From Alphaproteobacteria bacterium (GTDB lineage Bacteria > Pseudomonadota > Alphaproteobacteria > UBA828): a DNA stretch of 64,000 bases. A program made the translations under genes and the position numbers. Under the pieces are notes generated by a model, which was not told the origin of the DNA, made no database searches, and saw only the letters and a list, made by a program, of their open reading frames with translations. The stretch lies in the NCBI GenBank assembly GCA_965237415.1, contig CBDEFM010000002.1:64001-128000 (forward strand). Direction: 5' to 3'. Shown here one piece after another: positions 1 to 39,167 of this stretch. Every line of letters starts with the position of its first letter. Position 1 is the stretch's first letter.

Positions 1-869
1 TCGATTTCGACGTGAAGCGGGGGGAAACCCTCGGGCTGGTGGGCGAATCGGGCTGCGGCAAGTCGACGACGGCGCGGCTGGTCCTGCGGCTGATCGAGCC
101 GACCGCAGGCTCGGTCACCCTCGACGGCGTTGACGTGCTGGCGTGCACCAAGAAGGAGCTGCTCGCGCTCAGGCGCGAGATGCAGATCGTCTTTCAGGAT
201 CCGCTCAGCTCGCTCAACCCGCGCATGTCGGTCGGCAACCAGATCGCCGAGCCGCTGCGCTTCCACGGCATCGGCGACAAGGTGGACCGCTTCGACCGGG
301 CGCGGGAGTTCCTCGAGGTCGTGGGCCTCAGCACCGATTATTACGACCGGCTGCCCCACGAGTTCTCCGGCGGGCAGAACCAGCGCGTCGCCATCGCCCG
401 CGCCCTGATCCTGCAGCCCAAGCTGCTCATCCTCGACGAGCCGGTCTCGGCCCTCGATGTCTCGATCCGCGCCCAGATCCTCAGGCTCCTGATCGACCTG
501 CAGGGACGCTTCGAGCTCACCTACGTCTTCATCTCCCACGACCTCTCGGTGGTGAAGCGCTTCTGCAACCGCACCGCCGTGCTCTATCTCGGCCGCATCG
601 TGGAGATCGCGGAGAGCGAGAGCCTCTACCACGAGCCGCTCCACCCCTATTCCCAGGCGCTCATCAGCGCCATCCCCGAGGCCAATCCCGACGGGCCCAG
701 GGCCGAGTCTCTCGGCGGGCTGGAAGGCGATGTGCCGAGCCCGATCAGCCCGCCCTCGGGCTGTGCCTTCCACACGCGCTGCCCCCATCGGATGCCCGTC
801 TGCTCGGAGCAGAAGCCCGAGCTCAAGGAGGTGCGCGACGGCCACAAGGTCGCCTGCTTCCTCCACTAG
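1..869 (+). CDS. Oligopeptide/dipeptide ABC transporter ATP-binding subunit (OppF/DppF-like), 5'-truncated by window edge
   Basis: GESGCGKS Walker A, FSGGQNQR signature, LILDEP Walker B, C-terminal PSGCAFHTRCP...VAC. Confidence 0.95.
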   Translation, partial: DFDVKRGETLGLVGESGCGKSTTARLVLRLIEPTAGSVTLDGVDVLACTKKELLALRREMQIVFQDPLSSLNPRMSVGNQIAEPLRFHGIGDKVDRFDRAREFLEVVGLSTDYYDRLPHEFSGGQNQRVAIARALILQPKLLILDEPVSALDVSIRAQILRLLIDLQGRFELTYVFISHDLSVVKRFCNRTAVLYLGRIVEIAESESLYHEPLHPYSQALISAIPEANPDGPRAESLGGLEGDVPSPISPPSGCAFHTRCPHRMPVCSEQKPELKEVRDGHKVACFLH

Positions 870-1612
870 AGCGCGCGTCCACCTTCCCTGTCCCTCTCCC
901 CACTTATTTGTATCCCTCAGGCGTGGCATAGCCAGTCATGCCAGCCTGATGTGACCCCATAACCTACTGTAAGAACGATAACATTTCACTCTCGATGCAG
1001 CGTGGCGCGAGAGTGTCTTCGTAGCGCCCGTAAGCATATCGCTAGCGGATTCATTATAACTGCTGCGTATCAAACCGCGCAGGTGTCATATGATTGCGAC
1101 ACCACCGCGCGAGAGGCGCCCCCGTCCAAGCTGCGCTGGAAGCTGGAAGCGGTGGCGCATTGAGCGCCTACGCTGGAACGATGCGGCAACCGGCATCATG
1201 CGCCATGCCGATACAGCCTACGAGGACGCAGTCGATTGTGCCCCGTGGAACGGCCTTCGGCCACCAGCAACCCTCGACACCAGAAATCCTGGCTGCACTG
1301 GCGTATCCGGTTGAGTCGATGCACCGGGCGCGGGTAGAGCTCATGACCGCCTTCAACCAGCTACACAGGCAGCGTTAGAGAAGAAGATCGACGAGATCGT
1401 TACAGCTATCCATGAGACCGGCTTCAGCCGCGCTCTTACGGACCGGCTGCACAAGTTCGAGGCCGGCACTAAGAACTGCAACAACGTCTTGCAGCCGTTC
1501 CCCCCAAGATCTCAGACATCCATCCGAATATCGCCGGCATTTACGCCCGGAAGGTCGCATGCCTCGCGGAAGCGTTTGAAAAGCCCGATGAACGGGACGC
1601 GGCTGCGTCAGC

Positions 1613-1976
1613 CAACTACCGCCACGTCATCCATTCCTTGAAGAGGAAGCCGATGGCGCTGCTGAACCTGGTCTACCGCGACGCCCTGTTCCCCCGCGAC
1701 GCTTATCGGCGCTGCTTCGAGGCGGCCCTGGAGCGGTTCACCGAGCGCGAGGCCTGCCGGCTCACGGTGACCCTCCTGGCGCTTGCCCATGAGGAGAACT
1801 GCGAGGCCGAGCTGGCGGCGGCGATCGACGGCATCCTGGACGAGGGGCGGCTACCCGCCCCCAACGACCTCAAGGCGCGCTTCGCGCCGGACCCGGGCAA
1901 GATGCCCAGGATCGACGTCACCAGGACGCATCTGGCCGGCTACGGGTCTCTGCTGAGCGCAGGAAGTGCGTCATGA
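1613..1976 (+). pseudogene. istA: IS21-family IstA C-terminal fragment
   Basis: NYRHVIHSLKRKPMALLNLVYRDALFP is an IstA C-terminal stretch; the N-terminal/DDE part is missing; stop overlaps istB start (ATGA 1973-1976). Confidence 0.8.
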
Positions 1977-2044
1977 CCGGCAGCGACGACCTCACGGCAA
2001 CCGACCCCAACAAGGTCGATGCCATCAAGCTCTCCCTGATGCTC

Positions 2045-2268
2045 GCCACCAGCAGCCGATCGAAGCCCGGCCGCGACGTTCCGCCTCCAGAGCGGCCGAG
2101 ATCCTCGTCGATAATCACGGGCTCGTCCCAGCCCAGACCGCGAGCCCGATCCGCAAGGCCGTACTGACGACGGCGGCTCTCGTGGTTGTGCCGCAGCTGG
2201 TCCGGCGTCGACTGCCGAATGTAGACGACCGCCTCGCGTGCCAGATGATCAGGCGCGATCTTGTTCAT
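2045..2268 (-). pseudogene. Large serine recombinase N-terminal fragment
   Basis: MNKI...AVVYIRQST..Q...ES...QY, IDEDLGRSG...RPGFDRLL resolvase catalytic motifs; truncated after ~75 aa. Confidence 0.85.
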
Positions 2269-2739
2269 CGCCCGCCTCCTTCTCCGTGGCCGTCCCGTCC
2301 GCCATGTCCTCCGTCGGGTTCGCTGCCGCTTCGAGCAGCAGCGCCGCCAGTATCGGGATTACCGCCCCTCGCATCGCCGGCGTGAGTGCCGGACCCGGCT
2401 CCAGTAGTTCCAACAGCTCTCCCTGTCTTCCCATGTCGCCCTCCCAAATCCATGCGGGAGGGCGATGGTAGAACAGCGTCGATGTCCGAACGGAGGTCGC
2501 GCAGGGCGTCCACCGTAGCGCGATCCGCGGCTGATCCGTCACCGTCATCGCCGCCGCGTCTGGAAAGCACATCCAGGTCGGTATCTGCGCCAGCGTGCCA
2601 TCCGGCTGGCGGACGACGTAGATCATGGTCCCCTTGAAGCGGTGGCGCCGAACCACTTCCACGCGCTGGCCCGTGCGGGGGTGGAAGGGGTAGTGGATCT
2701 TCGTCGGACCGCCCTGGTATCGGGCAGTGTGTGGCTGTT
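2249..2739 (-). pseudogene. Accessory genes of a serine-recombinase element (YPFHP-type small protein, probably frameshifted, then a ~61 aa ORF overlapping the recombinase start)
   Basis: Frame EQPHTARY...IHYPFHPRTGQRVEVVRRHR...QPDGTLAQIPTWM, a motif set usually seen upstream of such recombinases; small ORF 2434-2249. Confidence 0.6.
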
Positions 2740-3363
2740 CCGCCCGGCGCCGGCAAAAGCCATCTTGCCTCTGCCATCGGCCTCGCCCTGGTCGAGAACG
2801 GCTATCGCGTACTCTTCACCCGCACCACCGATCTGGTGCAGCGCCTGCAGGTGGCAAGGCGTGAGCTCGCCCTGGAAAGCCAGCTCGCAAGGCTCGACCG
2901 CTACCATCTTCTGATCCTCGACGACCTCGCCTACGTGCAAAAGGATCAGGCCGAGACCAGCGTCCTCTTCGAGCTCATCTCGGCGCGCTACGAAAGGCGC
3001 TCTCTTCTAATAACCGCGAACCAGCCCTTCGGAGAATGGAACAAGGTGTTCCCGGACGAGACCACTGCGGTGGCCGCCGTCGATCGCCTCGTCCACCACG
3101 CCACAATCCTCGAGATGAACGTCGAGAGCTATCGCCGCCGCGCCGCGCTCGACAGACGAAAAAGGGGACCGGGGCGGCCCGCCAAGATCGCCACCGAGAA
3201 AAACACCACCGAGGACTGAGCCACGCACGGGTGCCGCCCCGGCGGCGCTCACGCTCGCTCCCTGCGGCCCGTCGGCATCTCAGTCGGCGGGCCGCACTTT
3301 ACTCCACGCATCCCGGCCGCAATCCCCCACAGCGATATCGCACCGATCGATCATGCGGACGCT

Positions 3364-3513
3364 CCGCGACAATCTGTGTGTGTCGCGCCGCGACAATCAA
3401 CGAGACGAAGGCCCTTGCAATGCCCGACGCTGCCCGCAATCATGCGCCCGCCGCTGGCGCCGGGAATCTCACCCTGATTGACGCGCGGCTCTCATCCAGA
3501 TCGTCGCGCTATA
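3364..3513 (+). repeat. IS21 right-end repeated transposase-binding motifs
   Basis: CCGCGACAATC at 3364 and 3388; inverted variants TGATTGACGCGC (3475) and GATCGTCGCGC (3499); element probably ends at ~3513. Confidence 0.6.
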
Positions 3514-4115
3514 AGTGGGCTCGGGTGGGGTGAAGAGGCCGTTCGCGCACTGGCGTGCTGTAGCGGCACCCGATGCTAAGCCTGGTCCGAACCATTTTGT
3601 CGCCTCGGTCACTGATGGCGCGGGTTTCCCGCGACCTCGTTGTGTGCCCAGCATGCTCGGTAGCTGGGAAGTGAAAGTCTTCTATCCAACCTGATGGAGG
3701 TGAAGGATTAGCAAAGCGCAAGGGCATCCCCGCGAGGTGGTGTCTGAAGGAAGCGTGGAGCAAAACCGCGACCTGACGAACAGAAACCGGATATGAGGCA
3801 GGCTTGGTCGGACGAGCGGGCAACGGATCGCGAAGTCCATATCCATCAAGGCCAAGTTTGTAGATCCGGCAGGTGTGCGGGGAAGGCGACCGAGCTTACC
3901 TGGGGAGGCCTGTGCCGTGTTCCAAGTCTGGAACTGAGGGAACTGCAAGGGGACCTGATCGCGGCGCAGGAGTCAGCAGACGGCATAGTAGGTCAGGCAG
4001 TCGGCAAAGCTATTTAGGCACTCCAAGGCCGAGAGGTGGAGCAACAGATAAGCCGAGCCGGTAACGATGGCCGAAGGCCTGAACGATTGGAAGCGGCAAG
4101 TAGGACGGACAACTC

Positions 4116-7100
4116 ATGCGTGGAAAGCGGCAGAACATCCAGTACTCACTGGCCTTGGAACTATCTGAGCGGGGTGAAACCCTGGTCGGCGGCTACCAAG
4201 GGACCGAACCACCTGTGGCGAAGCCCGACCCCGAAAGCCCGGCCTTGGCGGAACAGCTAATGGAGGAGATGTGCGGGCGGGAAAATTGCGAAACTGCGTG
4301 GAAGCACGTTCGAAAGAACAAGGGCGGTCCCGGCGTCGATGGGATGACCATCGACGAGGCCGCGGACTACCTGCGTGAGCACTGGCCAAGCATTCGGTCT
4401 CAACTGCTCGACGGAACCCACCAGCCCCAGCCGGTCAAGAGGGTCGAGATACCCAAGCCGGACGGCGGGGTCAGGAAACTCGGCGTCCCCTGTGTCGTCG
4501 ACAGACTGGTCCAGCAAGCCGTGTTGCAGGTTCTTCAGGCGCAATGGGACCCGACGTTTTCCGAACACAGCTACGGGTTCCGCCCGGGGCGCTCGGCCCA
4601 TCAGGCGGTGGCTCAGGCACAAGCGTATATTGCTGAGGGCTACGGTATCGTGGTTGACATCGACCTCGAAAAATTCTTCGACCGTGTCAACCAGGACCGA
4701 CTGATGGCTCGCGTTGCCGAACGGGTCTCCGACAAACGGGTACTCAAGCTGATCCGCGCCTTTCTCAAGGCCGGAGTGATGGAAGACGGGCTGGTTTATC
4801 CGGTTGACGAGGGGACCCCGCAAGGCGGTCCGCTTTCGCCTCTCCTGAGCAATCTCGTGCTCGATGAACTCGACAGGGAACTGACACGACGCGGCCACCG
4901 GTTCTGCCGGTACGCGGATGACTGTGTGCCACGAAGGCACGAGGAGGCTGAGATGATTTAGCCACCGAAGGGCCGTGCTGCACGAGAGATGGGGGTCGGC
5001 CCCCCGGAGCCGCCGTGCAGGCGGAGGCTTCAAACCACCCACTGCTGCTGTGTTCAAGAGACATGGTAGTGAGCGAGTGGGAAAAGGCAGGGCAATACCC
5101 TGTCAGGTAGGGATCGCGGAGTCGAACGCAAGTGAACCACTGTCAACGTGTCGAAAGCGTGTGGACGACGTCAAAACCGAGGGGTAGTCGTTACCTCGGG
5201 ATGAGTTCGGAAGGAACCTGCTTACTGACCGAATGGCGTCCGGCACAAAGGTGGCGAGACCGCGATCCAGGCTCTTCGGAACCTGTCAACGACTTTGAGA
5301 CAGTGACGATTGCGATTTACTGAGCAGTTTCTCCTGTTGTGGGTGTCACAGGTAGGTTGATCCAGACGGCTTGGGGAAGGGGATCCGGTTGTGGGATCCC
5401 TCGAACGAAGCGTTCGGGATGACGGGTCCAGGCGGCTTGAAGGGTCCGCCCGCGCTGCTCCAGCACGCTCTGGGTTCGATTGTGATGCACGTCGTCCGGG
5501 GTGAGCATCGCGATCCCGCCATGGCGATGTTCGGTGTTGTACCAAGGGAAGAACGTTCGGCAGAAGGCGATCGCGGCGGTGATGTCGTGGAAGCGGCCAG
5601 GGAAGCCGGGGTGGTACTTCAGGGTCTTGAACTGCGCCTCGGAGAAGGGGTTGTCGTCGGACACCTGAGGGCGGCTCAGTGAACGGGTCACGCCGAGGTC
5701 GGCGAGCAGTTGTGCGGTGCACTTGCTCGTCATCGGCGCGCCGCGGTCGGAGTGCAGGGTGAGCACCTGGGGCTGGACGCCCTGTTTGTGGCAGGTCTCT
5801 TCGATGAGACGACCGGCCAGCGCCGAGTTCTCCCGGTCTGCGACCATCCAGCCGACCGCGTAGCGGCTGAAGATGTCGAGCACGACGTAGAGGTAGAAGT
5901 ACGTCCACTTGGTCGGCCCCAACAGCTTGGTGATGTCCCAGGACCAGGTCTGGTTCGGCGCCGTGGCCACCAGCTCGGGCTTGATGTACTGGGGATGCTC
6001 GCGCTGATTGCGCCGCTCTCGGACCGGCTGATCGGCGGCCAGGATCCGATACATCGTCCGCTCCGAGCACAGGTAATGGCCTTCGTCGAGCAGCGTCGCC
6101 ACGACCTCCGCCGGCGCACGGTCGACGAAGCGCGGGCCGGCGAGCACATCGAGGATCTGCTCGCGCTCGGCTTCACACAGCGCCCGGGCGGGCGTTGGAC
6201 GGGGCTGCCGGTGCCCGGGAGTTGACCTCTGACGACGGTAGAAGGTCGCCCGTGACACGCCCAGTGCTTGGCAGGCCGGCGCCACGCCGACCTGCGCCGC
6301 AAGCGGTTGGACCGCGATCAAGAGCGCGTTCCGTGTTCGAGGTTCAATCCCAGCAGCCCGGCAACTTTTCCCTGCACGTCCAGGATCGTGTGCGCGGTGT
6401 GCAACTCGTGCTCCAGGCGAGCCACTTGCGCCTCGAGCGCGCGCACCTTCGCATCCAGCGGGTTGCGTTCGGCCGGTTTCGCGCCGCGCTTCTTCGCGGC
6501 CAACTCCCGCAGCGAGCCCTTGCGCCGCGCCTTGCGCCAAGCCGTCAGATGCGAGCTGTACAACCCCTCGCGGCGAAGCAGGCGGCCCACCTCGCCGGGC
6601 TGTGTGCAGCGATCCGCCTCCTCCAGAATCCGCAGCCGATACTCTGCGGTGAACTGGCGCCGCTTCGGCTTGGCCACAACCTCCGGGTCCGGGGTCGGTC
6701 TGGCGCGGCCGGCCCTGGGGGCCTCGTCGCTACGCTCCTCGACCCCCAGGGCCGGAACGGAAACCTCATTCAATGTCATCGAGTCTCTCTCTGCGGTCAT
6801 CGGTTTTCACCTCCGCCGCCCTACAGAAATTCCAAAGGTTGCTGGTGTCTCAGTGATGTTGGCAGAGAGGGCTTGTGCGGAACGTGGGAACCTGTCGCTT
6901 CGATGCCAAGGAAGAACCGCAAGTGGAGGCCCCACGAGCGGGAGAGTACCGATGCGGAGCACAGGGGCGGAGCGACCCGTAGTAGCGATGAAAGTTCTGT
7001 AATGGGGCTGGAGCGAAGGGGTTGCCCTATGCGGTTCGGGAAGTCGGGGCAACCGGCGACGGGAGGACCTTGATGGACCGGACGAAGCCGTTTCCCATCA

Positions 7101-8969
7101 GCAAACGTCAGGTCTGGGAAGCCTGGAAGAAGGTGAAAGCCAATCAGGGTGGGGCGGGGATTGACGGCCAGGCAATAGAAGCGTTCGAGGCCAAGGTTGG
7201 AGACAACCTGTACATGCTTTGGAACCGCATGGCGTCGGGCAGTTATCATCCGTCTCCGGTTCGACGAGTTGAGATTCCCAAGGCGGACGGCGGCGTTCGT
7301 CCGCTGGGGATACCAACGGTGGAGGATCGGGTAGCCCAAACGGTGGTGAAAGAGGTACTGGAGCCGGAACTGGAAAAACACTTTCATTCGGACTCCTACG
7401 GCTATCGGCCGGGGAAATCGGCTCACCAGGCACTGGGGCAGGCGCGAGAGCGCTGCTGGCGAAGTGACTGGGTGCTGGATCTCGATATCAGGTCGTTTTT
7501 CGACACGTTGGATCACGACCTGCTGCTTCGCGCAGTGCGCCGCCACACCGACGAGAACTGGGTGGTGCTGTATATCGAGAGGTGGCTGAAGGCCCCGGTA
7601 ATGCTGCCGAGCGGGGAGGTAGAAGAGCGGGATCGAGGCACGCCCCAAGGGGGTGTCGCAAGTCCGTTGCTTGCCAACCTGTTCCTGCATTATGTGTTCG
7701 ATTTGTGGATGGAGAGGCACTACCCGGCCATCCCGTTCGAGCGTTATGCCGACGATATCGTCTGCCATTGTCGCAGTGAGCGGCAGGCACACCATCTGAA
7801 GGGCGCACTGACACGTCGCTTTGAAGCCTGCGGGCTCGCGCTGCACCGGGAGAAGACGAAGATTGTCTACTGCCAGGACAGCGATCGACGAGGGAAGCAC
7901 CCCGTAACATCCTTTGACTTCCTGGGCTACACGTTTCGGCCCCGGCGGTCGAAGAACAAGTGGGGCGGGTTTTTCGTCAGTTTTAGTCCGGCGATCAGCA
8001 ACAAGGCGGCGAGAGCGATTCGGCGGGAAATCAGGAGTTGGAATCTGCATCGACGCAGTGACAAGAGCCTTGACGACCTTGCCCGAATGTTCAACGCAAC
8101 CATCAGGGGGTGGATCAACTATTACGGGGCCTTTTACAAGTCGACCCTCTTTGCCCCCTTGCGGATGATCGACAGGAGGCTCGCGCTTTGGGCCACGCGC
8201 AAGATGAAGCGTTTTCGGGCGCATCGGAGACGCGCTGCGCAATGGGTTGCCGACTGTGTTCGCCGGGACCCTAACCTGTTCGCACATTGGCGCGTTATTT
8301 ATCGTACGGCTGCATAGGAGGAGCCGTGTGAGCCGAGAGGTTCAAGCACGGTTCTGTGAGCGCCTCGGGGTGAGATTCCCCGGGGCGACTCGACGTAACA
8401 TCTACGTCCGCAGCCAGCGCGCCGGCGAACGTGTCATGGCCTCCGTGGCCAGGTTCCTGACCACGACGCTACGGCTCAAGGTCAACGAGTCAAAGAGCGC
8501 GGTCGCGCGACCGGAGGAGCGCAAGTTCCTGGGGTTCAGCATCGCGAATGATGGGAGCGAACGGCGCATCGCGCCGCAAGCTCTCGCGAAGTTCAAGGCG
8601 CGAATTCGGGACCTCACAAGCCGGACGCGGGGAATAAGTCTGCACCGGATGATCGAAACGCTAAAGCCATACCTGATGGGCTGGCGCGGCTACTTCGGTT
8701 TCTGCCAGACCCCGCGCGTGCTCACGAACCTGGAAGCGTGGATACGCCGAAGACTGCGTGCGTATCTGTGGCGACAGTGGAACAACGGTCACAAACGCTT
8801 CAAGGAGCTCCGCCGCCGGGGACTCTCAAAGGACCAAGCCGCCATCGCCGCTGGCTCGCCGACGGCGTACTGGCGCATGGCCGGACATGTGGTGGTCCAG
8901 CAGGCCCTACGCAACCACCATTTCGACTCGCTCGGCCTCCCCAGACTCTACACCCCTGCTGCGGCCTAA
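4116..8969 (+). CDS. ltrA: Class C group II intron reverse transcriptase/maturase, split (4116-4923 + 8395-8969; 460 aa when rejoined)
   Basis: GPGVDG, IPKPDGGVRKLG, SYGFRPGRS, GTPQGGPLSPLL; the rejoined junction GAC T|GT AAC reads YADDCNIYVRS in frame; GWRGYF maturase motif. Confidence 0.93.
5317..6321 (-). CDS. IS3-type OrfB DDE (rve) transposase
   Basis: PNQTWSWDITKL, LDIFSRY, LHSDRG, DNPFSEAQFKTLK; overlaps the OrfA stop; exact start uncertain (frameshift or coupling). Confidence 0.9.
   Translation of the reverse strand: MIAVQPLAAQVGVAPACQALGVSRATFYRRQRSTPGHRQPRPTPARALCEAEREQILDVLAGPRFVDRAPAEVVATLLDEGHYLCSERTMYRILAADQPVRERRNQREHPQYIKPELVATAPNQTWSWDITKLLGPTKWTYFYLYVVLDIFSRYAVGWMVADRENSALAGRLIEETCHKQGVQPQVLTLHSDRGAPMTSKCTAQLLADLGVTRSLSRPQVSDDNPFSEAQFKTLKYHPGFPGRFHDITAAIAFCRTFFPWYNTEHRHGGIAMLTPDDVHHNRTQSVLEQRGRTLQAAWTRHPERFVRGIPQPDPLPQAVWINLPVTPTTGETAQ
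6318..6800 (-). CDS. IS3-type OrfA (HTH)
   Basis: DPEVVAKPKRRQFTAEYRLRILEEAD...LLRREGLYSSHL. Confidence 0.85.
   Translation of the reverse strand: MTAERDSMTLNEVSVPALGVEERSDEAPRAGRARPTPDPEVVAKPKRRQFTAEYRLRILEEADRCTQPGEVGRLLRREGLYSSHLTAWRKARRKGSLRELAAKKRGAKPAERNPLDAKVRALEAQVARLEHELHTAHTILDVQGKVAGLLGLNLEHGTRS
7073..8317 (+). CDS. ltrA: Class D group II intron RT/maturase, intact ORF, no endonuclease domain
   Basis: KPFPISKRQVWEAWKKVKANQG, LWNRMASGSY, GTPQGGVASPLLANLFLHY, FERYADD, GWINYYG. Confidence 0.95.
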   Translation: MDRTKPFPISKRQVWEAWKKVKANQGGAGIDGQAIEAFEAKVGDNLYMLWNRMASGSYHPSPVRRVEIPKADGGVRPLGIPTVEDRVAQTVVKEVLEPELEKHFHSDSYGYRPGKSAHQALGQARERCWRSDWVLDLDIRSFFDTLDHDLLLRAVRRHTDENWVVLYIERWLKAPVMLPSGEVEERDRGTPQGGVASPLLANLFLHYVFDLWMERHYPAIPFERYADDIVCHCRSERQAHHLKGALTRRFEACGLALHREKTKIVYCQDSDRRGKHPVTSFDFLGYTFRPRRSKNKWGGFFVSFSPAISNKAARAIRREIRSWNLHRRSDKSLDDLARMFNATIRGWINYYGAFYKSTLFAPLRMIDRRLALWATRKMKRFRAHRRRAAQWVADCVRRDPNLFAHWRVIYRTAA

Positions 8970-9120
8970 TTCGGTCGAACCGCCGTGGTACGGACCCGTA
9001 TGCCCGGTGGTGTGGGAGGGGCGGCATCGTGAGATGCCCCCCTATCCCGATCAAGAGAATGGGACTTCGAACATGGTTCCTCCCCGCTCGCGACGGAGAT
9101 GAAACCTGGGAGGATGTTCC

Positions 9121-10539
9121 ATGGCGCGCAAGTCTCGAAGAACCCAGCGCCTCAGGGTGGTGAACCCGGACTGCGCAGGGATCGACATCGGCAAGGACCG
9201 GCATTTCGTGGCGGTCGACCCGGAACGCACCGAGGAGCCGGTGCGTTCGTTCGGCGCCTTTACCCGCGATCTGGAGGAGATGGCGGCGTGGCTAGCGTCG
9301 TGTGGGGTGACCAAGGTGGCGATGGAATCGACCTCGGTCTACTGGATAGCGGTCTACGAGACGCTGGAGCGCGCGGGCTTCGAGGTGATGCTGGTGCCGC
9401 CGCGCATGACGAAGCAGATCGGCGGGCGCAAGAGCGACGTGTTGGACTGCCAGTGGATCTGGCAGCTGATGTCCTACGGCCTGCTGCGGGGAGCGTTCCG
9501 TCCGGGCGACGAGGTTTGCCCGCTGCGCTCCTACGCACGCCAGATGAGGCGGCTGACCGGGGACCGCTCCCGCTGCGTCCTGCACATGCAGAAGGCGCTG
9601 ACCGAGATGAACGTCAAGCTCGACTCGGTGATCGCCAACATCGTGGGACTGACCGGCCAGCGCATCCTGCGCGCGATCATCGACGGCGAGCGTGACCCAG
9701 AGCGCCTGGCGACGCTCCGCCACCGGGGCATCAAGGCCGACGCCGATACGATCGCCGCGAGCCTTCAGGGGACGTGGCGTGAGGAGCATCTGTTCGCCCT
9801 CGAACAGGCCATGCAGCGCTACGACTTCCTGACCCAGCAGATCGACGACTGCGAGGCCCGGGTGATGGCCGAGATCGAGCGCCTGACACCGCCGGACGAT
9901 CTCCCGGACGGCGGCGCACCGGACCATGCCCCCGGCACGACCTCCGAAACCGCGTCGAGCCGCTCTGCGAACGCCGCAAGCAACTACACCGGCAAGGAGG
10001 GCATCCAGGCCCTGGCGTTGCGCGGAATGATGGGCGTCGACCTCACCGCGATCCCCACCATCGGTCCCGGTACCGCACTGGTGATCGCCTCGGAGATCGG
10101 CCCGGACTTCTCCGCCTTCCCCTCCGCCCAGCACTTCTGCTCCTGGCTTGCGCTCGCGCCGGGAACCAGGATCAGCGGCGGCAAGAACCTCCCCGGCAAG
10201 TCCCCGAAGGCGGTCAACCCCGTCGGGCAGGCCCTGCGCATGGCGGCCATGGCCGCGCGCCGCAGCGAGACCTTCATCGGCGCCAAGCACCGCGCAAGGC
10301 TCGCCCGAATGGACACCCCCGTTGCGATCAAGGCGACCGCCCGCGAACTCGCCTGCCTGATCTACCTCATGGTGACCGAAGGCCAGAAATACGTCGAGCA
10401 GGGCATCGACGCCTACGAGAAGCGGCGCCTCAACAGAAAGTTCGCTCATCTCGACCGCCAAGCCCGAAAACTCGGGCTCCAACTCGTCCCGGCACCGCAA
10501 AACGACGAAACGCAAAACTCAATGCCGTCAACTGCTTAG
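9121..10539 (+). CDS. IS110-family transposase (bridge recombinase), intact
   Basis: RuvC-like DEDD motifs AGIDIG, AMEST, KSDVLDC; C-terminal IPTIG...LAPGTRISGGK (serine motif); ATARELA. Confidence 0.95.
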   Translation: MARKSRRTQRLRVVNPDCAGIDIGKDRHFVAVDPERTEEPVRSFGAFTRDLEEMAAWLASCGVTKVAMESTSVYWIAVYETLERAGFEVMLVPPRMTKQIGGRKSDVLDCQWIWQLMSYGLLRGAFRPGDEVCPLRSYARQMRRLTGDRSRCVLHMQKALTEMNVKLDSVIANIVGLTGQRILRAIIDGERDPERLATLRHRGIKADADTIAASLQGTWREEHLFALEQAMQRYDFLTQQIDDCEARVMAEIERLTPPDDLPDGGAPDHAPGTTSETASSRSANAASNYTGKEGIQALALRGMMGVDLTAIPTIGPGTALVIASEIGPDFSAFPSAQHFCSWLALAPGTRISGGKNLPGKSPKAVNPVGQALRMAAMAARRSETFIGAKHRARLARMDTPVAIKATARELACLIYLMVTEGQKYVEQGIDAYEKRRLNRKFAHLDRQARKLGLQLVPAPQNDETQNSMPSTA

Positions 10540-10929
10540 GCAACTGTTACTCAAGAGCGCGCTTTGTTGACCCCCCGCAATCCAGCCAGATCATTGGGTT
10601 ACCGCGCCGATCGGCACCGAACCCGTGCGCCGATCAACAGTCGATCCCTCGCCGGAGACCGTCGAACACTATCGCGTCCAGGTTCGAACCTATCTCGACA
10701 TGACCGGCGCCGACCGGGGCTTGATCGTCATGATGACCGGCGGGAGGGTCGTCGAAATCCGTGGCCAGGGATGACGGATATAAGGCGGTGGGAGCGTGAC
10801 AGCTTCCGGGGGCGGAGATCGCTCTCGCGAGGCCCGGCGAGCGGAGAACGGATGAAGCGGCGGTGATCGTGGCAAGCCAGGTGAGAGCCAGCTAAATTGG
10901 TTTCCACACCAGAGACGGGCGACGGAAGA

Positions 10930-11245
10930 ATGGCCGAGTCTGGATTTCCGACGTTTTGCTCTGCCGACTTGCGCTTTATCGGCGACATGTTCTCCGACCC
11001 GCTGACCAGGGCCATCCGAAACGACATACTCTCGTTTCGCGCACCAGTCTGGTCCGAGGATGCACGCCGCGTCCTGACCGTACTTGGCGACGGGCGGTTT
11101 GATGCCGTGGCCGTTGCGATCCGGAGAGGCGCTCTGCGTTTCGCCGTGACGCCGGACTGGTCCTCGGGGATTCAGGCGATCGAGAGCGTTTTCGCGCTGA
11201 AGCGCCGGGCGCATCTGTTCCGGGCCGCGCCTTCGGTAACCTGGT
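10930..11245 (+). pseudogene. Hypothetical protein truncated by an IS21 end
   Basis: ORF MAESGFPTF... runs into the IS21 terminal repeat at 11246. Confidence 0.35.
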
Positions 11246-12263
11246 TGTTAGCGACGGCTTAGGAATGCGCGTATTTGCTGCATTTCTGGAGTTGGACGTG
11301 GTCGGCGGTTGATGCTGACGATCAATCCGAGGTGCCTCCAGGGTGCGTCATCGACATCGGGGTCGCGGCGGTAGCCGAGGGATCGCGCGACGCCTTCGAG
11401 GGGATAGGCTCTCAGGGTCTCGGCCTGCACCCGCCCGTACCATGGCGAGAGACGATCTATGACTACGCCGCCGACGGCGGCTCGCGGTCCAGGGCGTCGG
11501 CCTTTCCGGCTCGCCGACGGCCTGCTGCGCCCCGGCGGCGGCGGCGCTCTGCGCTGCGCTTCTTCTGGCGTTCCTCGGCCTCCTTTCGGCGATAGGAATC
11601 GCCGTCGATGGCGATGATCTCGGCGTTGTGGATGAGGCGGTCGACGAGGGCGACGACGCAGGCGGCGTTGGGGAAGGCTTCGCTCCACTCGGCGAAGGGC
11701 CGGTTTGTGGTGATTATGGTGGAGCGCTGCTGGCTGCGGCTGGAGACGATATTGAACAGCAGATCGGCATGGCGATTGCTATAGGAGAGGTAGCCGACCT
11801 CGTCGATCACCAGCAGCTGTTGGCGGGCGTAGAATCGGAGCTTGCGCTGGAGCAGGCTGTCGCTATCGAGGGCGGCGAGCTCACCGAGCATGTTTCCTGC
11901 AGTTGTGAAGCGCACGGTGTGCCCCTCGATGATGGCGCGGTGGGCGAGGTTGGCGGCGATGGTGGACTTGCCCACCCCGTTTGGGCCGACGAGGACGACG
12001 TTGGCGGCCTCGCGCAGGAACTCGAGGCTCATGAGGTCCTCGATGACCATTGGGTCGCAGCGGCGGGGCCAGTCCCAATCGAAGTCGACGAGGGGCTTGA
12101 AGTGTCCAATGCGGGCCTCGCTGAGGCGCCGCTTGAGGCTGCGGCTTCGCCGTTCTTCCTCTTCCCAGGCGATGAGGGTGGGCAGCCAGCTGCACTCGCC
12201 GATGTCGTCCCAGTGGGCGATGAGGCCGTACAGGCGCAGCGCGCGGGCACGGTCCTTGAGGGT
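11246..12263 (-). mobile_element. istB: Partial IS21 (istB + right end); inverted copy of 38367-39384
   Basis: Same IstB translation and same terminal TGTTAGCGACGGCTTAGG as the full element; both spans are 1018 bp. Confidence 0.92.
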
Positions 12264-12329
12264 ATCGTAGGCGGTCCTGCGCGGCCGCAGCGCCTTGACG
12301 CGGGCGTCGGTCAGGATGACCTTGGGCAT
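12264..12329 (-). pseudogene. Tyrosine integrase N-terminal (arm-binding) remnant fused in frame to IstB
   Basis: MPKVILTDARVKALRPRRTAYD resembles the N-terminus of P4-like integrases. Confidence 0.6.
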
Positions 12330-12705
12330 GAACCTTCTCCCGATTGCGGTTGCAGCCGGGGAAGCGTGAGTTACGCAATCCGTTCCGCTGCAACGATTGT
12401 CAGGAGAAAAAACAACCCTTTATCAAATAGTTAGAACCGAAGGTGCGTGTTAAGGTGTATTCCACCGTCTGACGGAGGAATGCAGATGAGCAGCAAGCGA
12501 CGCAGGTTGTCGGGGGAGCGACTGTTCGGGTTCTCAGGAACAGCGGACGGGGAGCCACGCTCACCCGCGGTCTTCGACACCAAAGGTGGATCGGTCTCCC
12601 GCCCGCTTCCACCGCCGTCAGAATAACAACGACGGCGATCAGACAAGATACAAGGTGGAGGCGCGTGTGCCTGTCGAGTGCTGCGACCTTCGCGCGAGCT
12701 GCGGG

Positions 12706-14799
12706 TCAGCGGCGGCGGCTCGTATCGAGGACGATGCAGCCGGCGTCGTTGAGGGTTGCATGCACGCCGGGCGGTACGACGCAGGTCGCGTCGTACTCCT
12801 CGACGATCACAGGGCCTTCCCGCGCCTCTGCAAGGTCGGCGCGGGCGATCACGTCGGCCTCGCACCAGCCGTCGTCCGGGCCGAAATAGGCGCGCCGGGT
12901 CGCGGGCCCGGACGCTGGCCCGGCGGCGTGGTCGATGCGGGGCGGCGGGGCGGCGGGGCGGCGGCCGCGGCCCAGCACGCGGAGCGTGACCAGCTCGACC
13001 GGCTCCTCTGGCCCGGCACGGTGGCCGTAGGTGCGCTCATGCTCCGCGCCGAAGGCCTCTTCGAGCGCAGCCAGCGCGTCATCGTCGAGCGGGCCGTCCG
13101 GCAGGGCGACGGTGAGCTCGTAGGTCTGGCCCTGATAGTGGAGGCTTGCGTGGCGCTCGATCGTGGCGGCGGGCCCGCCGTAGCCGTCGGCGGCGAGCCG
13201 GCGGAGCGCCTCCTCGGCCAGCGCGACCCACGCAGCGTTGAGCGCGGACTTGTCGAGGTCCCGCAGCAGCGCGCGAAAGGTGCGCGAGAGGTGGTGCTCG
13301 ACGTCCGCCGTGAGCAGGCCGAAGGAGGAGAAGAGGCCGGGGGCAGGGGGTACGACCACGCGCCGGATCGCGATGGCCTGGGCCATCGCGGCGCCGAACA
13401 CAGGCCCGTTGCCGCCGAAGGCGACGAGCGTATAGCCGCGCGGGTCGCGGCCACGCTCGGTCGAGACCGCGCGGATCGCCCGGATCATGTTGGAGGCCAC
13501 GATCCGGTGCGCGCCGTAGGCCGCCTCTTCGACCGAAACGCCGAGTGGCTCCGCGATCTGTTGCCGCATCGCGTCGATCGCCTTGGCGGAATCGATGGGC
13601 AGCGCGCCGCCCACGAGGTAGTCCGGATTGAGGTAGCCGAGAGCCACGTTGGCGTCGGTGATGGTGGGCGCGCTCCCGCCCTGGTCGTAGCAGACGGGGC
13701 CGGGCTCGGCGCCCGCGCTCTCAGGCCCGACCTGCATGGAACCGCCGGCGTCGATGGCGATGAGCGAGCCGCCGCCTGCACCCACCTCGGCGAGATCGAT
13801 GGCCGGCATCCGCACAAGATAGCCGGCGCCGGTCATCAGGCGGGAGCCGGTGAGGATGCCGCCCCCCACCTGGAACTCGCTGGAGCGGCTGATGACGCCG
13901 CCTTCGATCAGCGCCGCCTTCGCCGTGGTGCCCCCCATGTCGAAGGTGACGAGATCGTCCTGGCCGATATCGCCGGCCATGGCGAGTGCGCCGACCACGC
14001 CGCCGGCCGGTCCCGATTCGACGATGTTGACCGGGCGGTGCGACGCCTCCTCCGCCGAGGTCAGCCCGCCGTTCGACTGCATGATGAGCAGGTGCGCGTT
14101 CGGGCAGCGCTCCGTGATCGCCTGCCCCAAGCGCTCCAGATACGTGCGCACGATGGGGCTGATGTAGGTGTTGATGACCGTGGTCGACGTGCGCTCGTAC
14201 TCCTTGATCTCGGGCAGGACGTCGTAGCTGATGCTGACGGCGCAGCCCGGCGCGCGCTCCTTGACGATCGCCTCCACCGCCCGCTCGTGGACCGGATTGG
14301 CAAAGGCGTTGATGAGGCAGATGGCGATGGCGTCCACGCCTTCGGCGAGCAGCCGATCCACCGCAGCGCGTGCGTCCTCGGCATCGAGGGCCGTCTGCAC
14401 ATTGCCCGCCGTGTCGATCCGCTCGTCCACCACGGCGCGCAGGTAGCGCTCCACGAGCGGCGGCGGCTTCTCCCACGCGAGGTCGTAGAGCCGGGGCATC
14501 CTGAGGTTGCGGATCTCCAGCACGTCGCGGAAGCCGCGCGTGCCGATCAGCCCGGTGCGGGCGCCCTTGCGCTCCAGTAGCGCGTTGCTGGCGACGGTGG
14601 TTCCGTGCACCACCTCGGCGATGTCGGCGCCGTCGATCGCGTGCTCGGCGACGAGGGAGGCGACGCCTTCCATGATGGCGCGGGCGTAGTCGTCGACGCT
14701 GGAGGAGACTTTTCGCGTCGCGACCGTGCCATCCTCGGCCAGGAGAACGATATCGGTGAAGGTGCCGCCGATATCGACGCCGATGCGGTATGCGCTCAC
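12706..14799 (-). CDS. Hydantoinase/oxoprolinase A subunit (ATP-dependent)
   Basis: IGVDIGGTFTD, HGTTVASNALLERKG, ESGPAGG, FDMGGTT, GPESAGAEPGP; GTG start overlaps the B-subunit stop. Confidence 0.95.
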   Translation of the reverse strand: MSAYRIGVDIGGTFTDIVLLAEDGTVATRKVSSSVDDYARAIMEGVASLVAEHAIDGADIAEVVHGTTVASNALLERKGARTGLIGTRGFRDVLEIRNLRMPRLYDLAWEKPPPLVERYLRAVVDERIDTAGNVQTALDAEDARAAVDRLLAEGVDAIAICLINAFANPVHERAVEAIVKERAPGCAVSISYDVLPEIKEYERTSTTVINTYISPIVRTYLERLGQAITERCPNAHLLIMQSNGGLTSAEEASHRPVNIVESGPAGGVVGALAMAGDIGQDDLVTFDMGGTTAKAALIEGGVISRSSEFQVGGGILTGSRLMTGAGYLVRMPAIDLAEVGAGGGSLIAIDAGGSMQVGPESAGAEPGPVCYDQGGSAPTITDANVALGYLNPDYLVGGALPIDSAKAIDAMRQQIAEPLGVSVEEAAYGAHRIVASNMIRAIRAVSTERGRDPRGYTLVAFGGNGPVFGAAMAQAIAIRRVVVPPAPGLFSSFGLLTADVEHHLSRTFRALLRDLDKSALNAAWVALAEEALRRLAADGYGGPAATIERHASLHYQGQTYELTVALPDGPLDDDALAALEEAFGAEHERTYGHRAGPEEPVELVTLRVLGRGRRPAAPPPRIDHAAGPASGPATRRAYFGPDDGWCEADVIARADLAEAREGPVIVEEYDATCVVPPGVHATLNDAGCIVLDTSRRR

Positions 14800-16661
14800 G
14801 CCCTGCTCTCGGGCGCGGTGTCTACAGGCGGCATCTCGCCGCGCGAGACTGCCGGCGGCGCGGACCACCCTCGTGCGGCCCGCAATACCGCCCGGCGCGC
14901 CTCGGTTGCGGCATGATCCACCCGCCAAGAGGTGCGATCGACGATCACGCCGTAGTCGTCGCGCGCGGTGTCCTCACCGATCATCTCGTTGCGCAGGTCG
15001 CGCAGCACGGCTTGCGGATCGCGCTCCAGCGGATCGCCCCAGCCGCCGGCGCCGGCGAGCTCGTGGCGGAAGACATCGCCATGCTGGATCGTCTCGGTAA
15101 GCTTGCTCGGCAGCGGGCGTTCGTCCGGCCCCGGATTCATCGCGTTGCGCGAGGGCTGGCCGGGGCTCCCGCCATAGAGCCCGTAGGGGCGGAAGGTGTG
15201 GCGGTCGGAGCGCACCTGGAGCAGCCCTTCGGCCTCCAGAAAGCGATAGTCGCGGCGGAACGGCGTGCCGCCCCGGTAGCGGCCGGCGCCTGCGCGGTCG
15301 GGCACGAACTCGTAGGAGAGGATCTGCAGCGGATACTCGGCCTCGGTCACCTCCACCGACTGGGAGGCCATGTTGGCGAAGATGTTGGAGTTGCCGTCGA
15401 GGCCGTCGGCCCAGGGCCGGGCACCCCAGGTGCCGCAGGTGAAATCGACATAGATGAAGGGCTTCCGCTGATCGTCGTAGCCGCCGATGGTGATGCCGGT
15501 GTTGCCGCCGTCCGAAGCCGCAAACACTTTTTCGGGCAGCATCATGGCGAGCGCCCCGAAGGCGCAATCCACCATGCGGAACCCGGTGAGCCCGCGCGCG
15601 GCGCAGGCCGCCGGCAGCACGGCGTTGGTGATGGTGCCGGAGGGCGCTGAGACGGTGATGGCGCGGAACACGCCCTCGTTGTTGGGGATACCCGCTGGCA
15701 AGACCGAGCGGATCGCCGTGTAGGTGGCGGCCTTGGTCCAGGACAGCGTGCTGTTGATCGCGCCCTTCACTTGCGGCGATGAGCCCGCCCAGTCGGCATG
15801 GAGGCTGCCGCCCTCCTTGCGGAGCGTGACGAACAGCCTGATCGGCTTGCCGCGATCGACGCCGTCGTCGTCGATCCAGTCCTCGAAGCTGGTCTCGCCG
15901 TCGGGCAGGTCGCGGAGCGCGGCGCGGGTGAGGCGCTCGGCATAGTCGATGATCTCGCGCAGATAGAAGCGCGTGGCCTGGGCGCCGTGCTGGCGGACCA
16001 GTTCGATGAACTGGCGCTCCGCGATGTGGCAGGCCGCGAGCTGGGCGCGCAGGTCGCCGAAGAGCTTGACCGGCAGGCGCACGTTCTTCTCCAGGATCGC
16101 GAAGAGGGTCTCGTTGCGCGCGCCCTTATCGTAGAGGCGGAGCGGCGGGATGCGCACCCCTTCCTGGTAGATCTCGGTGGAATCGGAGGCGTTGGAGCCT
16201 GCCACACGGCCGCCGACATCGGCGTGGTGGCAGACCGTGGCTGCGAAGGCCAGACGCTCGCCCCCGTCGAAGACCGGCTTGAAGATGAAGATGTCCGGCA
16301 GGTGCATGCCGCCGTCGAACGGGTCGTTCATCACGAACACGTCGTCGGGATGGATGTCGTCGCCATAGTGGCGCAACACCGATTCGATGGCGGTCGGCAC
16401 TGAGCCGAGATGGCCAGGCAGGGTGAGACCCTGCGCGATGAGGCGCCCGTCACCGTCGGTGAGCGCCGTGGAGAAATCCATGTTGTCGCGGAGCACGCCC
16501 GAATAGGTGGTGCGGCAGACGGTGAGCGCCATCTCGTCCGCGATGGCGAAGATGGCGTTCCTGAAGAGCTCGAAGCCGAAGGGATCGGCCCCGCCCGCGC
16601 CCTGCGCCTCGGCCGCGCCCGCCGCTCCTGCGCTCTCACCGCGCTCTACGATTGCTTCCAT
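14796..16661 (-). CDS. Hydantoinase B/oxoprolinase subunit
   Basis: NDPFDGGMHLPD, HHADVGG, EIYQEG, GAGGWGDPLERD. Confidence 0.95.
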   Translation of the reverse strand: MEAIVERGESAGAAGAAEAQGAGGADPFGFELFRNAIFAIADEMALTVCRTTYSGVLRDNMDFSTALTDGDGRLIAQGLTLPGHLGSVPTAIESVLRHYGDDIHPDDVFVMNDPFDGGMHLPDIFIFKPVFDGGERLAFAATVCHHADVGGRVAGSNASDSTEIYQEGVRIPPLRLYDKGARNETLFAILEKNVRLPVKLFGDLRAQLAACHIAERQFIELVRQHGAQATRFYLREIIDYAERLTRAALRDLPDGETSFEDWIDDDGVDRGKPIRLFVTLRKEGGSLHADWAGSSPQVKGAINSTLSWTKAATYTAIRSVLPAGIPNNEGVFRAITVSAPSGTITNAVLPAACAARGLTGFRMVDCAFGALAMMLPEKVFAASDGGNTGITIGGYDDQRKPFIYVDFTCGTWGARPWADGLDGNSNIFANMASQSVEVTEAEYPLQILSYEFVPDRAGAGRYRGGTPFRRDYRFLEAEGLLQVRSDRHTFRPYGLYGGSPGQPSRNAMNPGPDERPLPSKLTETIQHGDVFRHELAGAGGWGDPLERDPQAVLRDLRNEMIGEDTARDDYGVIVDRTSWRVDHAATEARRAVLRAARGWSAPPAVSRGEMPPVDTAPESRA

Positions 16662-38361: not shown

Positions 38362-39167
38362 CCGACACCCTCAAGGACCGTGCCCGCGCGCTGCGCCTGT
38401 ACGGCCTCATCGCCCACTGGGACGACATCGGCGAGTGCAGCTGGCTGCCCACCCTCATCGCCTGGGAAGAGGAAGAACGGCGAAGCCGCAGCCTCAAGCG
38501 GCGCCTCAGCGAGGCCCGCATTGGACACTTCAAGCCCCTCGTCGACTTCGATTGGGACTGGCCCCGCCGCTGCGACCCAATGGTCATCGAGGACCTCATG
38601 AGCCTCGAGTTCCTGCGCGAGGCCGCCAACGTCGTCCTCGTCGGCCCAAACGGGGTGGGCAAGTCCACCATCGCCGCCAACCTCGCCCACCGCGCCATCA
38701 TCGAGGGGCACACCGTGCGCTTCACAACTGCAGGAAACATGCTCGGTGAGCTCGCCGCCCTCGATAGCGACAGCCTGCTCCAGCGCAAGCTCCGATTCTA
38801 CGCCCGCCAACAGCTGCTGGTGATCGACGAGGTCGGCTACCTCTCCTATAGCAATCGCCATGCCGATCTGCTGTTCAATATCGTCTCCAGCCGCAGCCAG
38901 CAGCGCTCCACCATAATCACCACAAACCGGCCCTTCGCCGAGTGGAGCGAAGCCTTCCCCAACGCCGCCTGCGTCGTCGCCCTCGTCGACCGCCTCATCC
39001 ACAACGCCGAGATCATCGCCATCGACGGCGATTCCTATCGCCGAAAGGAGGCCGAGGAACGCCAGAAGAAGCGCAGCGCAGAGCGCCGCCGCCGCCGGGG
39101 CGCAGCAGGCCGTCGGCGAGCCGGAAAGGCCGACGCCCTGGACCGCGAGCCGCCGTCGGCGGCGTAG
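38358..39167 (+). CDS. istB: IS21 helper ATPase IstB
   Basis: GPNGVGKS, LLVIDEVGY, VDRLIH, GDSYR. Confidence 0.95.
   Translation: MTDTLKDRARALRLYGLIAHWDDIGECSWLPTLIAWEEEERRSRSLKRRLSEARIGHFKPLVDFDWDWPRRCDPMVIEDLMSLEFLREAANVVLVGPNGVGKSTIAANLAHRAIIEGHTVRFTTAGNMLGELAALDSDSLLQRKLRFYARQQLLVIDEVGYLSYSNRHADLLFNIVSSRSQQRSTIITTNRPFAEWSEAFPNAACVVALVDRLIHNAEIIAIDGDSYRRKEAEERQKKRSAERRRRRGAAGRRRAGKADALDREPPSAA

Follow-up and report, generated by a model that had tools for sequence, protein, structure and literature searches.

IS3, class D intron, class C intron and IS110 nested one inside the other: a probable decayed stack of selfish elements in an alphaproteobacterial genome

Background

The closest described relatives of the elements treated here are introduced first. 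In the bridge RNAs of IS110-group transposons, the left target guide (LTG) reads as the top strand of the left flank and core (PMC11208160). Group II introns of class C (IIC) insert after intrinsic terminators or attC stem-loops, and both homing of introns into related intron open reading frames (ORFs) and nests of up to five introns have been recorded in Methanosarcina (PMC4424553). Class D introns encode a protein (intron-encoded protein, IEP) which carries the C-terminal motif LX3AX3PXLF[V/A]HW (PMC4615759). In the locus described here such elements are stacked to a considerable depth: an insertion sequence (IS) of the IS3 family lies in a class D intron, the latter in a class C intron, and this in turn in an IS110-family transposon, cut by an IS21-like element. 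The locus belongs to a stretch of 64,000 nucleotides, hereafter the window, from a two-contig, 4.75 Mb alphaproteobacterial genome (G000:C2:64001-128000); unprefixed positions refer to the window.

Positions 1-16000 of the window were scanned for ORFs and with Pfam, NCBIfam and Rfam profiles. The transposase lineage of the IS110 element was searched for in 49 genomes of the same order, and metagenome loci were given numbers preceded by L. Public sequences were checked as contigs from 4 runs; the joined forms found there exist as DNA, and are silent on splicing, RNA ends and expression. Stretches to which no contig of these runs maps carry no weight either way.

Results

Organization of the locus

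The region is best read as a decayed stack of selfish elements, resulting from four separate insertions and one truncation, with a presumed loss of mobility and a presumed dependence of one layer on the splicing of another; we assign to this reading a probability of about 85%. All four kinds of elements named in the original prediction were recovered by the ORF, Pfam, NCBIfam and Rfam scans in the order proposed there, IS110 > IIC intron > class D intron > IS3, the IS3 element on the minus strand and the others on the plus strand. By genome-wide BLAST, the IS110 element and both introns are single-copy in the genome. The parts of the locus are the following.

2740-3513, plus strand: IS21-like remnant, ending at the element terminus (3513) and retaining istB in its 3' part (ORF 2731-3219); cuts short the left end of IS110
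3514-3641, plus strand: IS110 left end, part 1, lacking its first 73 nt and the core (alignment and RNAalifold fold of 6 left ends)
3642-9051, plus strand: outer group II intron, assigned to class C (IIC), 1939 nt without its insert (Rfam, empty sites, joint 3640>9051)
4116-4923, plus strand: reverse transcriptase (RT) of the outer intron, first part, ending one base beyond the RYADD codons (RVT_1, 4.9e-31)
4924-8394, plus strand: inner group II intron, assigned to class D (IIB-type), 1873 nt without the IS3 element (Rfam, YADD site, joint 4923>8395)
5277-6871, minus strand: IS3-family element, 1595 bp, with CTT at 5274-5276 and 6872-6874
7022-8317, plus strand: RT/maturase of the inner intron, 431 aa, or 414 aa from the likely ATG at 7073; YADD present (TIGR04416, 447 bits; RVT_1; GIIM)
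8395-8969, plus strand: RT of the outer intron, second part, with the rest of the RT domain and the maturase (GIIM, 8.7e-21)
9052-9120, plus strand: IS110 left end, part 2, with the remainder of the candidate donor guide (CAAGAG, 9052-9057), two 3' strands, one for the donor-loop stem (9073-9079) and one for the long-range stem (9079-9089), and the ribosome-binding region of the transposase gene
9121-10539, plus strand: IS110-family transposase (bridge recombinase), 472 aa, open (NF033542, Pfam)
10540-10557, plus strand: IS110 right end, through 10555, and AG core at 10556-10557; reads CTGTTACTCAAG followed by AG, the same in the relatives examined; in the window, CGCGC comes next
10556-10639, plus strand: 84-bp genomic repeat, the IS110 target, its first bases being the core and the right target half

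What was directly observed comprises the limits and empty sites of these elements, the openness of their ORFs, the truncation, and where the intron lies with respect to the guides. As had been proposed, the inner layers can be removed exactly: the empty-site form of each is found in relatives, as well as in contigs of all 4 public runs, where joints 3640>9051 (skipping 5410 nt), 4923>8395 (skipping 3471) and 5273>6872 (skipping 1598) correspond to the outer intron, the inner intron and the IS3 element, respectively. Once rejoined, the ORFs of the elements are open, as likewise anticipated: 460 aa for the outer RT, 431 aa for the inner one, 160 aa for orfA of the IS3 element, followed by orfB.

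The class C intron in the predicted bridge RNA

Six left ends of IS110 elements, from five lineages, were aligned, and a consensus fold was derived with RNAalifold. The fold consists of 5' stem-loops, followed by a long-range stem which encloses two stem-loops with internal loops; compensatory changes are seen in 9 of the 72 predicted pairs. On the 3' side of the first internal loop, 7 nt coincide with left flank and core in all five lineages, being different in each (TGTTAAG, TTGGAAG, TTACCAG, CCCATAG, TCATGAG). This match, taken with the rule given in PMC11208160, identifies the segment as the putative LTG, which in the window reads GAUGCUAAG (3572-3580). On the 3' side of the second loop, directly past the apical hairpin, the sequence UC[A/G]AGAG is a candidate donor guide: with respect to right end and core, CTC[A/G]AGAG, it is exact in four of the five lineages, with A/G covariation, and shows one G·T wobble in the fifth. 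The element features a long left non-coding end with loops matching both target and donor. Rfam contains no family matching the intact left end of this lineage, the best E-value, 1.5, being that of a chance match.

The class C intron falls between the U and the C of the donor-guide segment, at position 205 of the 273 of the left end, and both the donor-loop stem and the long-range stem have their 3' strands downstream of it (9073-9089). According to this model, the intron interrupts the predicted bridge RNA in its donor-binding loop. Since it lies inside the donor guide, the guide RNA would be whole only after splicing, by which the guide would be restored exactly, the ligated exons reading CGACCUCGUU-CAAGAG.

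As to variation within the LTG, the window reads GAUGCUAAG, but at position 3576 a T is found in all four public runs and in two related loci described below, L024 and L034 (GATGTTAAG). One empty copy of the 84-bp repeat, at C2:197488, is preceded by TGCTA-AG, which fits the LTG variant of the window.

The outer intron starts with GUGUGCCC... and ends with ...CCCGAU; the Rfam model D1D4-3 matches it at 3726-3895 with 140 bits, and domain V (D5) contains, at 8981-8983, the CGC triad usual for ribozymes of the IIC type. In relatives devoid of the intron the empty site reads CGACCTCGTT^CAAGAGAATGGG (here and below, a caret marks the insertion point), and IS110 copies of other genomes align without gaps across 3641/9052. 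Insertion took place after 3641, 5 nt past the hairpin GGCGCGGG-UUU-CCCGCGACC (3617-3636), that is just 3' of a stem-loop and with a short candidate intron-binding site 1 (IBS1). A related Mesorhizobium intron follows a different G+C-rich hairpin, GCCGC-GACTA-GCGGC, at a similar distance, both sites reading GTT^CA; the candidate exon-binding site 1 (EBS1), AACG at 3822-3825, is weak, with 4 bases pairing here and 3 in the Mesorhizobium relative.

Across the inner intron, the outer RT gene appears as two annotated ORFs, 4116-4961 (RVT_1, positions 1-157 of the 205 of the profile) and 8247-8969 (GIIM), and TIGR04416 matches both halves of the protein. When these are rejoined, a stop-free RT of 460 aa results, of the same length as the ltrA product of the Mesorhizobium intron, an intron 83% identical to the outer one. 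Its N-terminal part scores 316 bits against the GsI-IIC RT, and no more than 226 against other PDB chains; the corresponding score of the inner RT is 176 bits. The Pfam scan of the outer RT revealed no HNH domain, and both pairwise scores and profiles describe a class C RT/maturase without endonuclease. On the basis of the GsI-IIC score, of the CGC triad and of the hairpin upstream of the insertion site, the outer intron can be assigned to class C, in agreement with the IIC label of the original prediction.

Recurrence of the intron at the same base

The same junction between IS110 left end and intron is found in three genomes: that of the window, G037 (L024, which is the same as L033) and the one represented by L034. 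L024 has a complete IS110 left end, and its intron is interrupted past nt 409 by a further IS. The composite of L034 is intact, with both IS110 ends, target flanks of its own, a 460-aa RT and a 472-aa transposase, and without either the inner intron or the IS3 element. Window and L034 introns are identical at 1936 of 1939 positions, the 3' parts of their IS110 elements at 1450 of 1504, and the left ends differ at 4 of 124; with respect to L024, 7 of 124 positions differ in the left end and 1 of 409 in the intron. Over the first 409 nt, the introns of the three loci share 408-409 positions, while 117-120 of 124 are shared by the left ends. The introns are thus at least 99.75% identical, while their IS110 hosts differ by 3-6%. 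An intron so much less diverged than its hosts would be younger than the divergence of the latter, and the comparison favours repeated homing of the IIC intron into the bridge RNA hairpin rather than a single co-inheritance; the intron, in other words, appears to treat this hairpin as a homing site. In the metagenome contigs of JGI, exact 28-mer matches to the IS110/intron junction were 0.

The contig of L034 is labelled as a Dehalococcoidia metagenome-assembled genome, yet the IS110 element and the intron which it carries match those of this alphaproteobacterial genus with 96-99.8% identity; the mismatch points to either a recent horizontal transfer or a binning error.

The IS110 element and its lost left end

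The transposase is recognized by PF01548 (DEDD_Tnp_IS110, 7.3e-22), PF02371 (Transposase_20, 9.9e-13) and NF033542 (264 bits, with a cut-off of 140). Its lineage was found in 7 of the 49 genomes, including the one under study, where there is a single match; at the other extreme, G048 contains 33 copies, 96-98% identical to the window transposase, some of which are in tandem at a spacing of 1707 bp, corresponding to 1705 bp plus the core. The whole element measures 1705-1706 bp in relatives, and 128 + 1504 = 1632 bp in the window. In five IS110 lineages from six other genomes, 73 more conserved nt are found to the left of window position 3514, ending at AG, with flanks beyond which differ from locus to locus: divergence starts only past the AG, at sites matching the LTG of each lineage. 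The missing 73 nt find no match longer than 21 nt in the genome.

At the window element, right end and AG core are present, the left terminus is absent, and the end of an IS21-like element is found instead; judged by these alignments, the element is a truncated member of the IS110 family. With its left donor half-site gone, this copy very probably cannot excise and is immobile. No sister copy of the lineage is present in the genome, which contains IS110-family transposases of other lineages. The original prediction had the IS110 layer, too, removed cleanly, which fails because the left end is 73 bp longer in relatives and is here replaced by the IS21 terminus. The AG core proposed for both ends stands at the right one (10556-10557), the AG at 3514 being a chance occurrence. 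Similarly, the nest had been said to abut a broken IS21: the IS21 element is indeed broken, only the C-terminal part of IstB being left, but rather than merely abutting the nest, its terminus takes the place of the first 73 bp of IS110.

Four other copies of the 84-bp target repeat are present in the genome. They start at the same base, and are preceded by a TGTTGTTA-like sequence, representing empty target sites. The repeat begins with AGCGCGCTTTGTTGACCCC and contains internal palindromes; its copies lie at C2:197419-197488, C2:3412322-3412405, C1:283207-283290 and C2:3661592-3661673. It serves as insertion site of this IS110 lineage both in the window and in G037, where copy L011 is inserted in the same repeat. 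The lineage is also found in G039 (L006, L012) and in G048 (L004, L015, L020), the copies of the latter being often arranged head-to-tail, at a spacing of 1707 bp or about 1570 bp. In L015, one IS110 copy sits in the left end of another, at GATGTTA-AG-CTTGG, which is the DNA encoding the left target guide; the gene of the guide may thus mimic its own target and attract self-insertion.

The class D intron and its homing site

The inner intron starts with GUGUGCC..., ends with ...CUCGAC, and has AGC as its D5 triad; Rfam matches are D1D4-2 at 4991-5108 and the model of domains V and VI (D5/D6) at 8319-8394, with 55.8 bits. Its removal joins ...CGG TAC GCG GAT GAC T to GT AAC ATC TAC..., restoring RYADDCNIYV, and both the Mesorhizobium intron and L034 are contiguous across 4923/8395. 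The C-terminus of the IEP reads ...VADCVRRDPNLFAHW..., the motif part being DPNLFAHW: PXLFAHW is exact, with V and V at the positions of L and A. RVT_1 and GIIM are its only Pfam domains; it contains no endonuclease, nor does it feature the DNA-binding (D) and endonuclease (En) domains, and it is 66% identical to a 419-aa LtrA of S. meliloti. Exon recognition of the IIB type is suggested by two candidate pairings, EBS1 AGUCGU (5187-5192) with IBS1 AUGACU and EBS2 GCGUG (about 5157-5161) with IBS2 UACGC; in alignment, the S. meliloti relative keeps both EBS-IBS pairings with other letters (GCGUA/UAUGC). The PNLFAHW motif and the similarity to S. meliloti LtrA are the grounds for assigning the intron to class D, a label which the original prediction had already given to it.

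The S. meliloti relative is inserted at the same place, right after GAC GAC T of the YADD codons, in a host RT 42% identical to the outer RT. At that locus (L002, S. meliloti pSymB, CP140948.1 1120779-1124807), the three annotated genes 'reverse transcriptase domain-containing protein', ltrA and 'maturase' correspond to a single intron RT, interrupted at YADD by a class D intron nested in it, as in the window. Metagenome contigs were scanned for GAYGAYT followed by the first 12 bases of the inner intron, which returned at least 121 loci (L035-L155), 116 of which have at least 90 nt upstream. For the 116 scored among the matches listed, the five residues preceding the junction are RYADD in 78 cases, RFADD in 14, and other forms of the xxADD or xxCDD type in the remaining ones listed, within RTs of visibly different families. 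By its sequence and site, the inner intron is an ordinary member of a widespread lineage which homes into the active-site codons of RT genes. In the outer RT, the insertion separates fingers and palm from the maturase domain.

The IS3 element in domain I

The IS3 transposase (5317-6540) is recognized by NF033516 (184 bits, with a cut-off of 160) and by rve (3.8e-22). It is encoded by orfA, 6800-6318 (160 aa), and by orfB, which extends to 5317 in the -1 frame, with a slippery G GGA AAA at 6365-6372. The organization is that of an IS3 element, with a 0/-1 orfA/orfB arrangement, slippery site, DDE domain (rve), 3-bp duplication and imperfect terminal repeats, although the termini are not the usual TG...CA. 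The CTT duplication had been correctly reported. In BLAST searches of the genome, 5276-6872 is about 84% identical to IS3 copies located elsewhere, and a sister copy has the same ends and a GAT duplication. The S. meliloti homologue of the inner intron is uninterrupted at the corresponding site (5276/6875), reading ...GGCTCTT^GTGTGGAACGTGGGAACC.

In order to place the insertion on the structure, the first ~590 nt of the inner intron without the IS3 element were aligned with a set of eight homologues, taken from S. meliloti and from a further seven genomes of alphaproteobacteria. In the RNAalifold structure, GCACGAGAG (4979-4987) is paired with CUCUU^GUGC, the IS3 element being inserted at the caret. 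All 9 pairs of this helix are conserved in the 7 homologues scored, with compensatory changes, for example AUGGAAAAG/CUUUUCCAU; in S. meliloti, read by eye, 9 of 9 pairs are likewise formed, and L156, which has no 5' strand, was left out. The helix encloses most of domain I, the domain to which the insertion had been originally attributed. On this model, the IS3 element is likely to abolish folding of the helix. A GCAC/GUGC helix involving intron nt 14-17, beside the IS3 element, had also been considered, and was dropped, covariation backing the helix with nt 56-64.

Dependence between layers

As judged from the sequences, a chain of dependence at the RNA level is logically sound, since the inner intron interrupts the outer RT at YADD, ahead of the maturase domain, the IS3 element splits a covariation-backed helix of domain I, and the outer intron interrupts the predicted bridge RNA. 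The IS3 element would impair splicing of the inner intron, the outer maturase would consequently not be made, and the bridge RNA would not be repaired. Rescue by a maturase acting in trans from elsewhere in the genome seems unlikely: the genome contains 11 other full-length group II RT genes, none of which is more than 41% identical to either RT of the nest. With the left end gone and no sister copy available, the chain is anyhow moot as far as the mobility of this IS110 copy is concerned.

The IS21-like remnant and neighbouring repeats

The IstB fragment at the left of the nest matches NF038214 with 187 bits, over positions 98-231 of the 232 of the profile, and a tblastn search with the intact IstB of the window matches it over residues 116-246 only. 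An IS21-like repeat has its final base at 3513; a further two copies in the genome stop at that same base, next to unrelated flanks. In place of istA and istB between terminal repeats, only the C-terminal part of IstB and one terminus are found, with no istA; the IS21 neighbour is a fragment.

In the copy of this remnant located in the other contig (G000:C1:15981-19169), an insert of about 2.4 kb is found at the point corresponding to window 2919-2923. A full group II RT gene (C1:17125-18171) is contained in this insert, which indicates another intron inside an IS fragment. Between a resolvase-like ORF (1918-2268) and the IS21 remnant, window 2043-2820 is a repeat of about 780 bp, with five genome copies 88-97% identical, and overlaps the start of the istB fragment. 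On the other side of the nest, a second and different IS21-like element lies at 11246-12329 (istB 11463-12329, minus strand); two other copies match it with 100% identity over at least 755 bp, and one of these is in the window at about 38630-39384 (C2:102630-103384).

Discussion

The order of nesting suggests how the locus may have been assembled. A whole IS110-family element, of 1705 bp, would have entered a TGTTGTTA-AG-CGCGC site at its AG, on the border of the 84-bp repeat. A class C intron would then have retrohomed into its left non-coding end, 5 nt past the apical hairpin of the donor loop and one base into the donor guide, and a class D intron into the outer RT gene, directly 3' of the YADD codons. 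Finally, an IS3 element would have jumped into the inner intron, duplicating 3 bp and interrupting the conserved 9-bp helix of domain I in its 3' strand. In a separate event, an IS21-like element would have inserted in the IS110 left end, a later rearrangement leaving the right part of IS21 and removing the first 73 bp of IS110 from the genome.

Some observations weigh against this picture. Junctions 3513/3514, 5276/5277 and 6871/6872 are known from this assembly alone, the best public run covering 0.72 of the sampled words, and the junction between outer and inner intron was found elsewhere in one contig only, with a short side of 28 nt. For the outer intron, the D5/D6 match (8978-9051) reaches 30.5 bits, short of the gathering score of 40, yet it spans the full length of the model and includes the CGC triad. 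Because of the duplicated CUU, 7 of the 9 helix bases are still contiguous on the 3' side of the IS3 element. As to the bridge RNA, complementarity scans gave no convincing right-target or right-donor guide, so that the model rests on 2 of 4 guides and on 6 sequences, and right flanks vary freely within lineage B.

Alternative explanations concern the assembly, the left end and the history of the composite. Some layers might have been joined by the assembler and not in the cell, the region being dense in repeats, with an IS3-like sequence whose depth is up to more than 10x that of its neighbours in the public runs examined, and with the assembly-specific junctions just mentioned. Single-copy introns and a single-copy IS110, however, offer no repeat on which to cross over; the IS3 element is 16% different from its nearest genome copy and is flanked by its own duplication; the limits of the introns are canonical GUGUG...AY ends, which restore reading frames exactly; and two other genomes offer independent instances of the IS110/intron junction. 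A chimera of this kind is the least probable of the explanations considered, and we give it almost no weight. Hardly more credible is a complete IS110 element extending from 3514 to 10557, simply placed beside a broken IS21, as suggested by the AG at 3514-3515 and at 10556-10557 and by the intact transposase ORF. All relatives hold 73 further conserved bases leftward, and at the position of window 3514-3515 they read AC, AG, GG or TG, which argues that the AG found there is not a core; moreover, 3513 is an IS21 terminus common to three copies, and the IS21 end followed by AG (CTATAAG) matches the window LTG (TGCTAAG) at only 4 of 7 positions. The case is a warning for annotation, in that a dinucleotide core at both ends is insufficient to call an IS110 boundary.

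A more serious contender is that the intron entered one ancestral IS110 element only once, the composite being subsequently spread as a unit by transposition and horizontal transfer. The junction is in fact identical in all three genomes, and the intact composite of L034 occupies its own target site. Joint inheritance would not lead one to expect 3 differences out of 1939 in the intron, as opposed to 54 out of 1504 and 4-7 out of 124 in its host, unless recombination or gene conversion had homogenised the intron; we regard a single entry as unlikely, if far less so than the two preceding alternatives, and prefer the view of repeated homing as part of the decayed stack.

Where the composite is intact, as in L034, the class C intron could conceivably act as a splicing-dependent switch gating IS110 transposition: the donor-binding loop would be completed only once the RT/maturase of the intron itself had spliced the intron out. 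The intron would use the hairpin of the guide RNA as a dedicated homing site and ride IS110 to new genomes, and the window would contain a copy silenced stepwise by the YADD-homing intron, by IS3 and by IS21. We offer this as a tentative and rather doubtful proposal. Bridge RNAs, the programmable part of IS110 recombinases, have now become genome-writing tools. An intron at the same base of the donor-binding loop in three genomes would mean that the hairpin of the loop is recognised by a retroelement, and suggests a natural route by which maturation of a guide RNA may be made conditional on splicing.

Comparison with described systems

Among the papers listed by literature searches, made in a collection with few subscription journals, none was found to describe a group II intron within the bridge RNA gene of an IS110 element. 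Of two papers which deal with IS110 along with cargo or introns, 10.64898/2026.08.14.744561 has 0 occurrences of 'intron', and 10.64898/2026.10.21.760802 mentions introns only as a class of RNA.

With IS621-type elements of the IS110 group (Durrant et al. 2024, PMC11208160), the window element shares a DEDD transposase, a long left and a short right end, a dinucleotide core, a predicted RNA with target-binding and donor-binding loops, an LTG reading as left flank and core, and a repeated extragenic target. It differs in its core, AG, in the size of the transposase (472 aa) and of the left end (273 nt), in that guides were found on the 3' sides of the loops, in having no clear right-target guide, and in the presence of a group II intron in the guide RNA gene.

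The outer intron resembles other class C introns (PMC4424553) in having an RT without endonuclease, closest to the GsI-IIC RT, in its location a few bases past a G+C-rich hairpin, and in its short candidate IBS1. In contrast with them, it does not follow a terminator or an attC site, the hairpin being the apical stem of the predicted donor loop, and the intron interrupts a guide RNA instead of lying downstream of a gene.

As regards the inner intron, its likeness to RmInt1, RmInt2 and Sr.md.I1 of Sinorhizobium (PMC4615759) extends to the size of the IEP, about 414-419 aa, to its lack of D and En domains, to the class D motif, to the EBS1 and EBS2 pairings, to residence in mobile elements, and to the idea that splicing may control the host element. 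Unlike these introns, it homes to the YADD-coding DNA of RT genes and not to an IS transposase gene; the nearest S. meliloti relative examined, with 66% IEP identity, is also nested in the RT of another intron. The arrangement as a whole is that of the twintrons of bacteria and Methanosarcina (PMC4424553), where the inner intron must leave before the outer protein is expressed and no housekeeping exons are involved. The present nest departs from them in that introns of different classes are nested, D in C, an IS3 element lies in the inner intron, and the entire stack is contained in an RNA-guided transposon.

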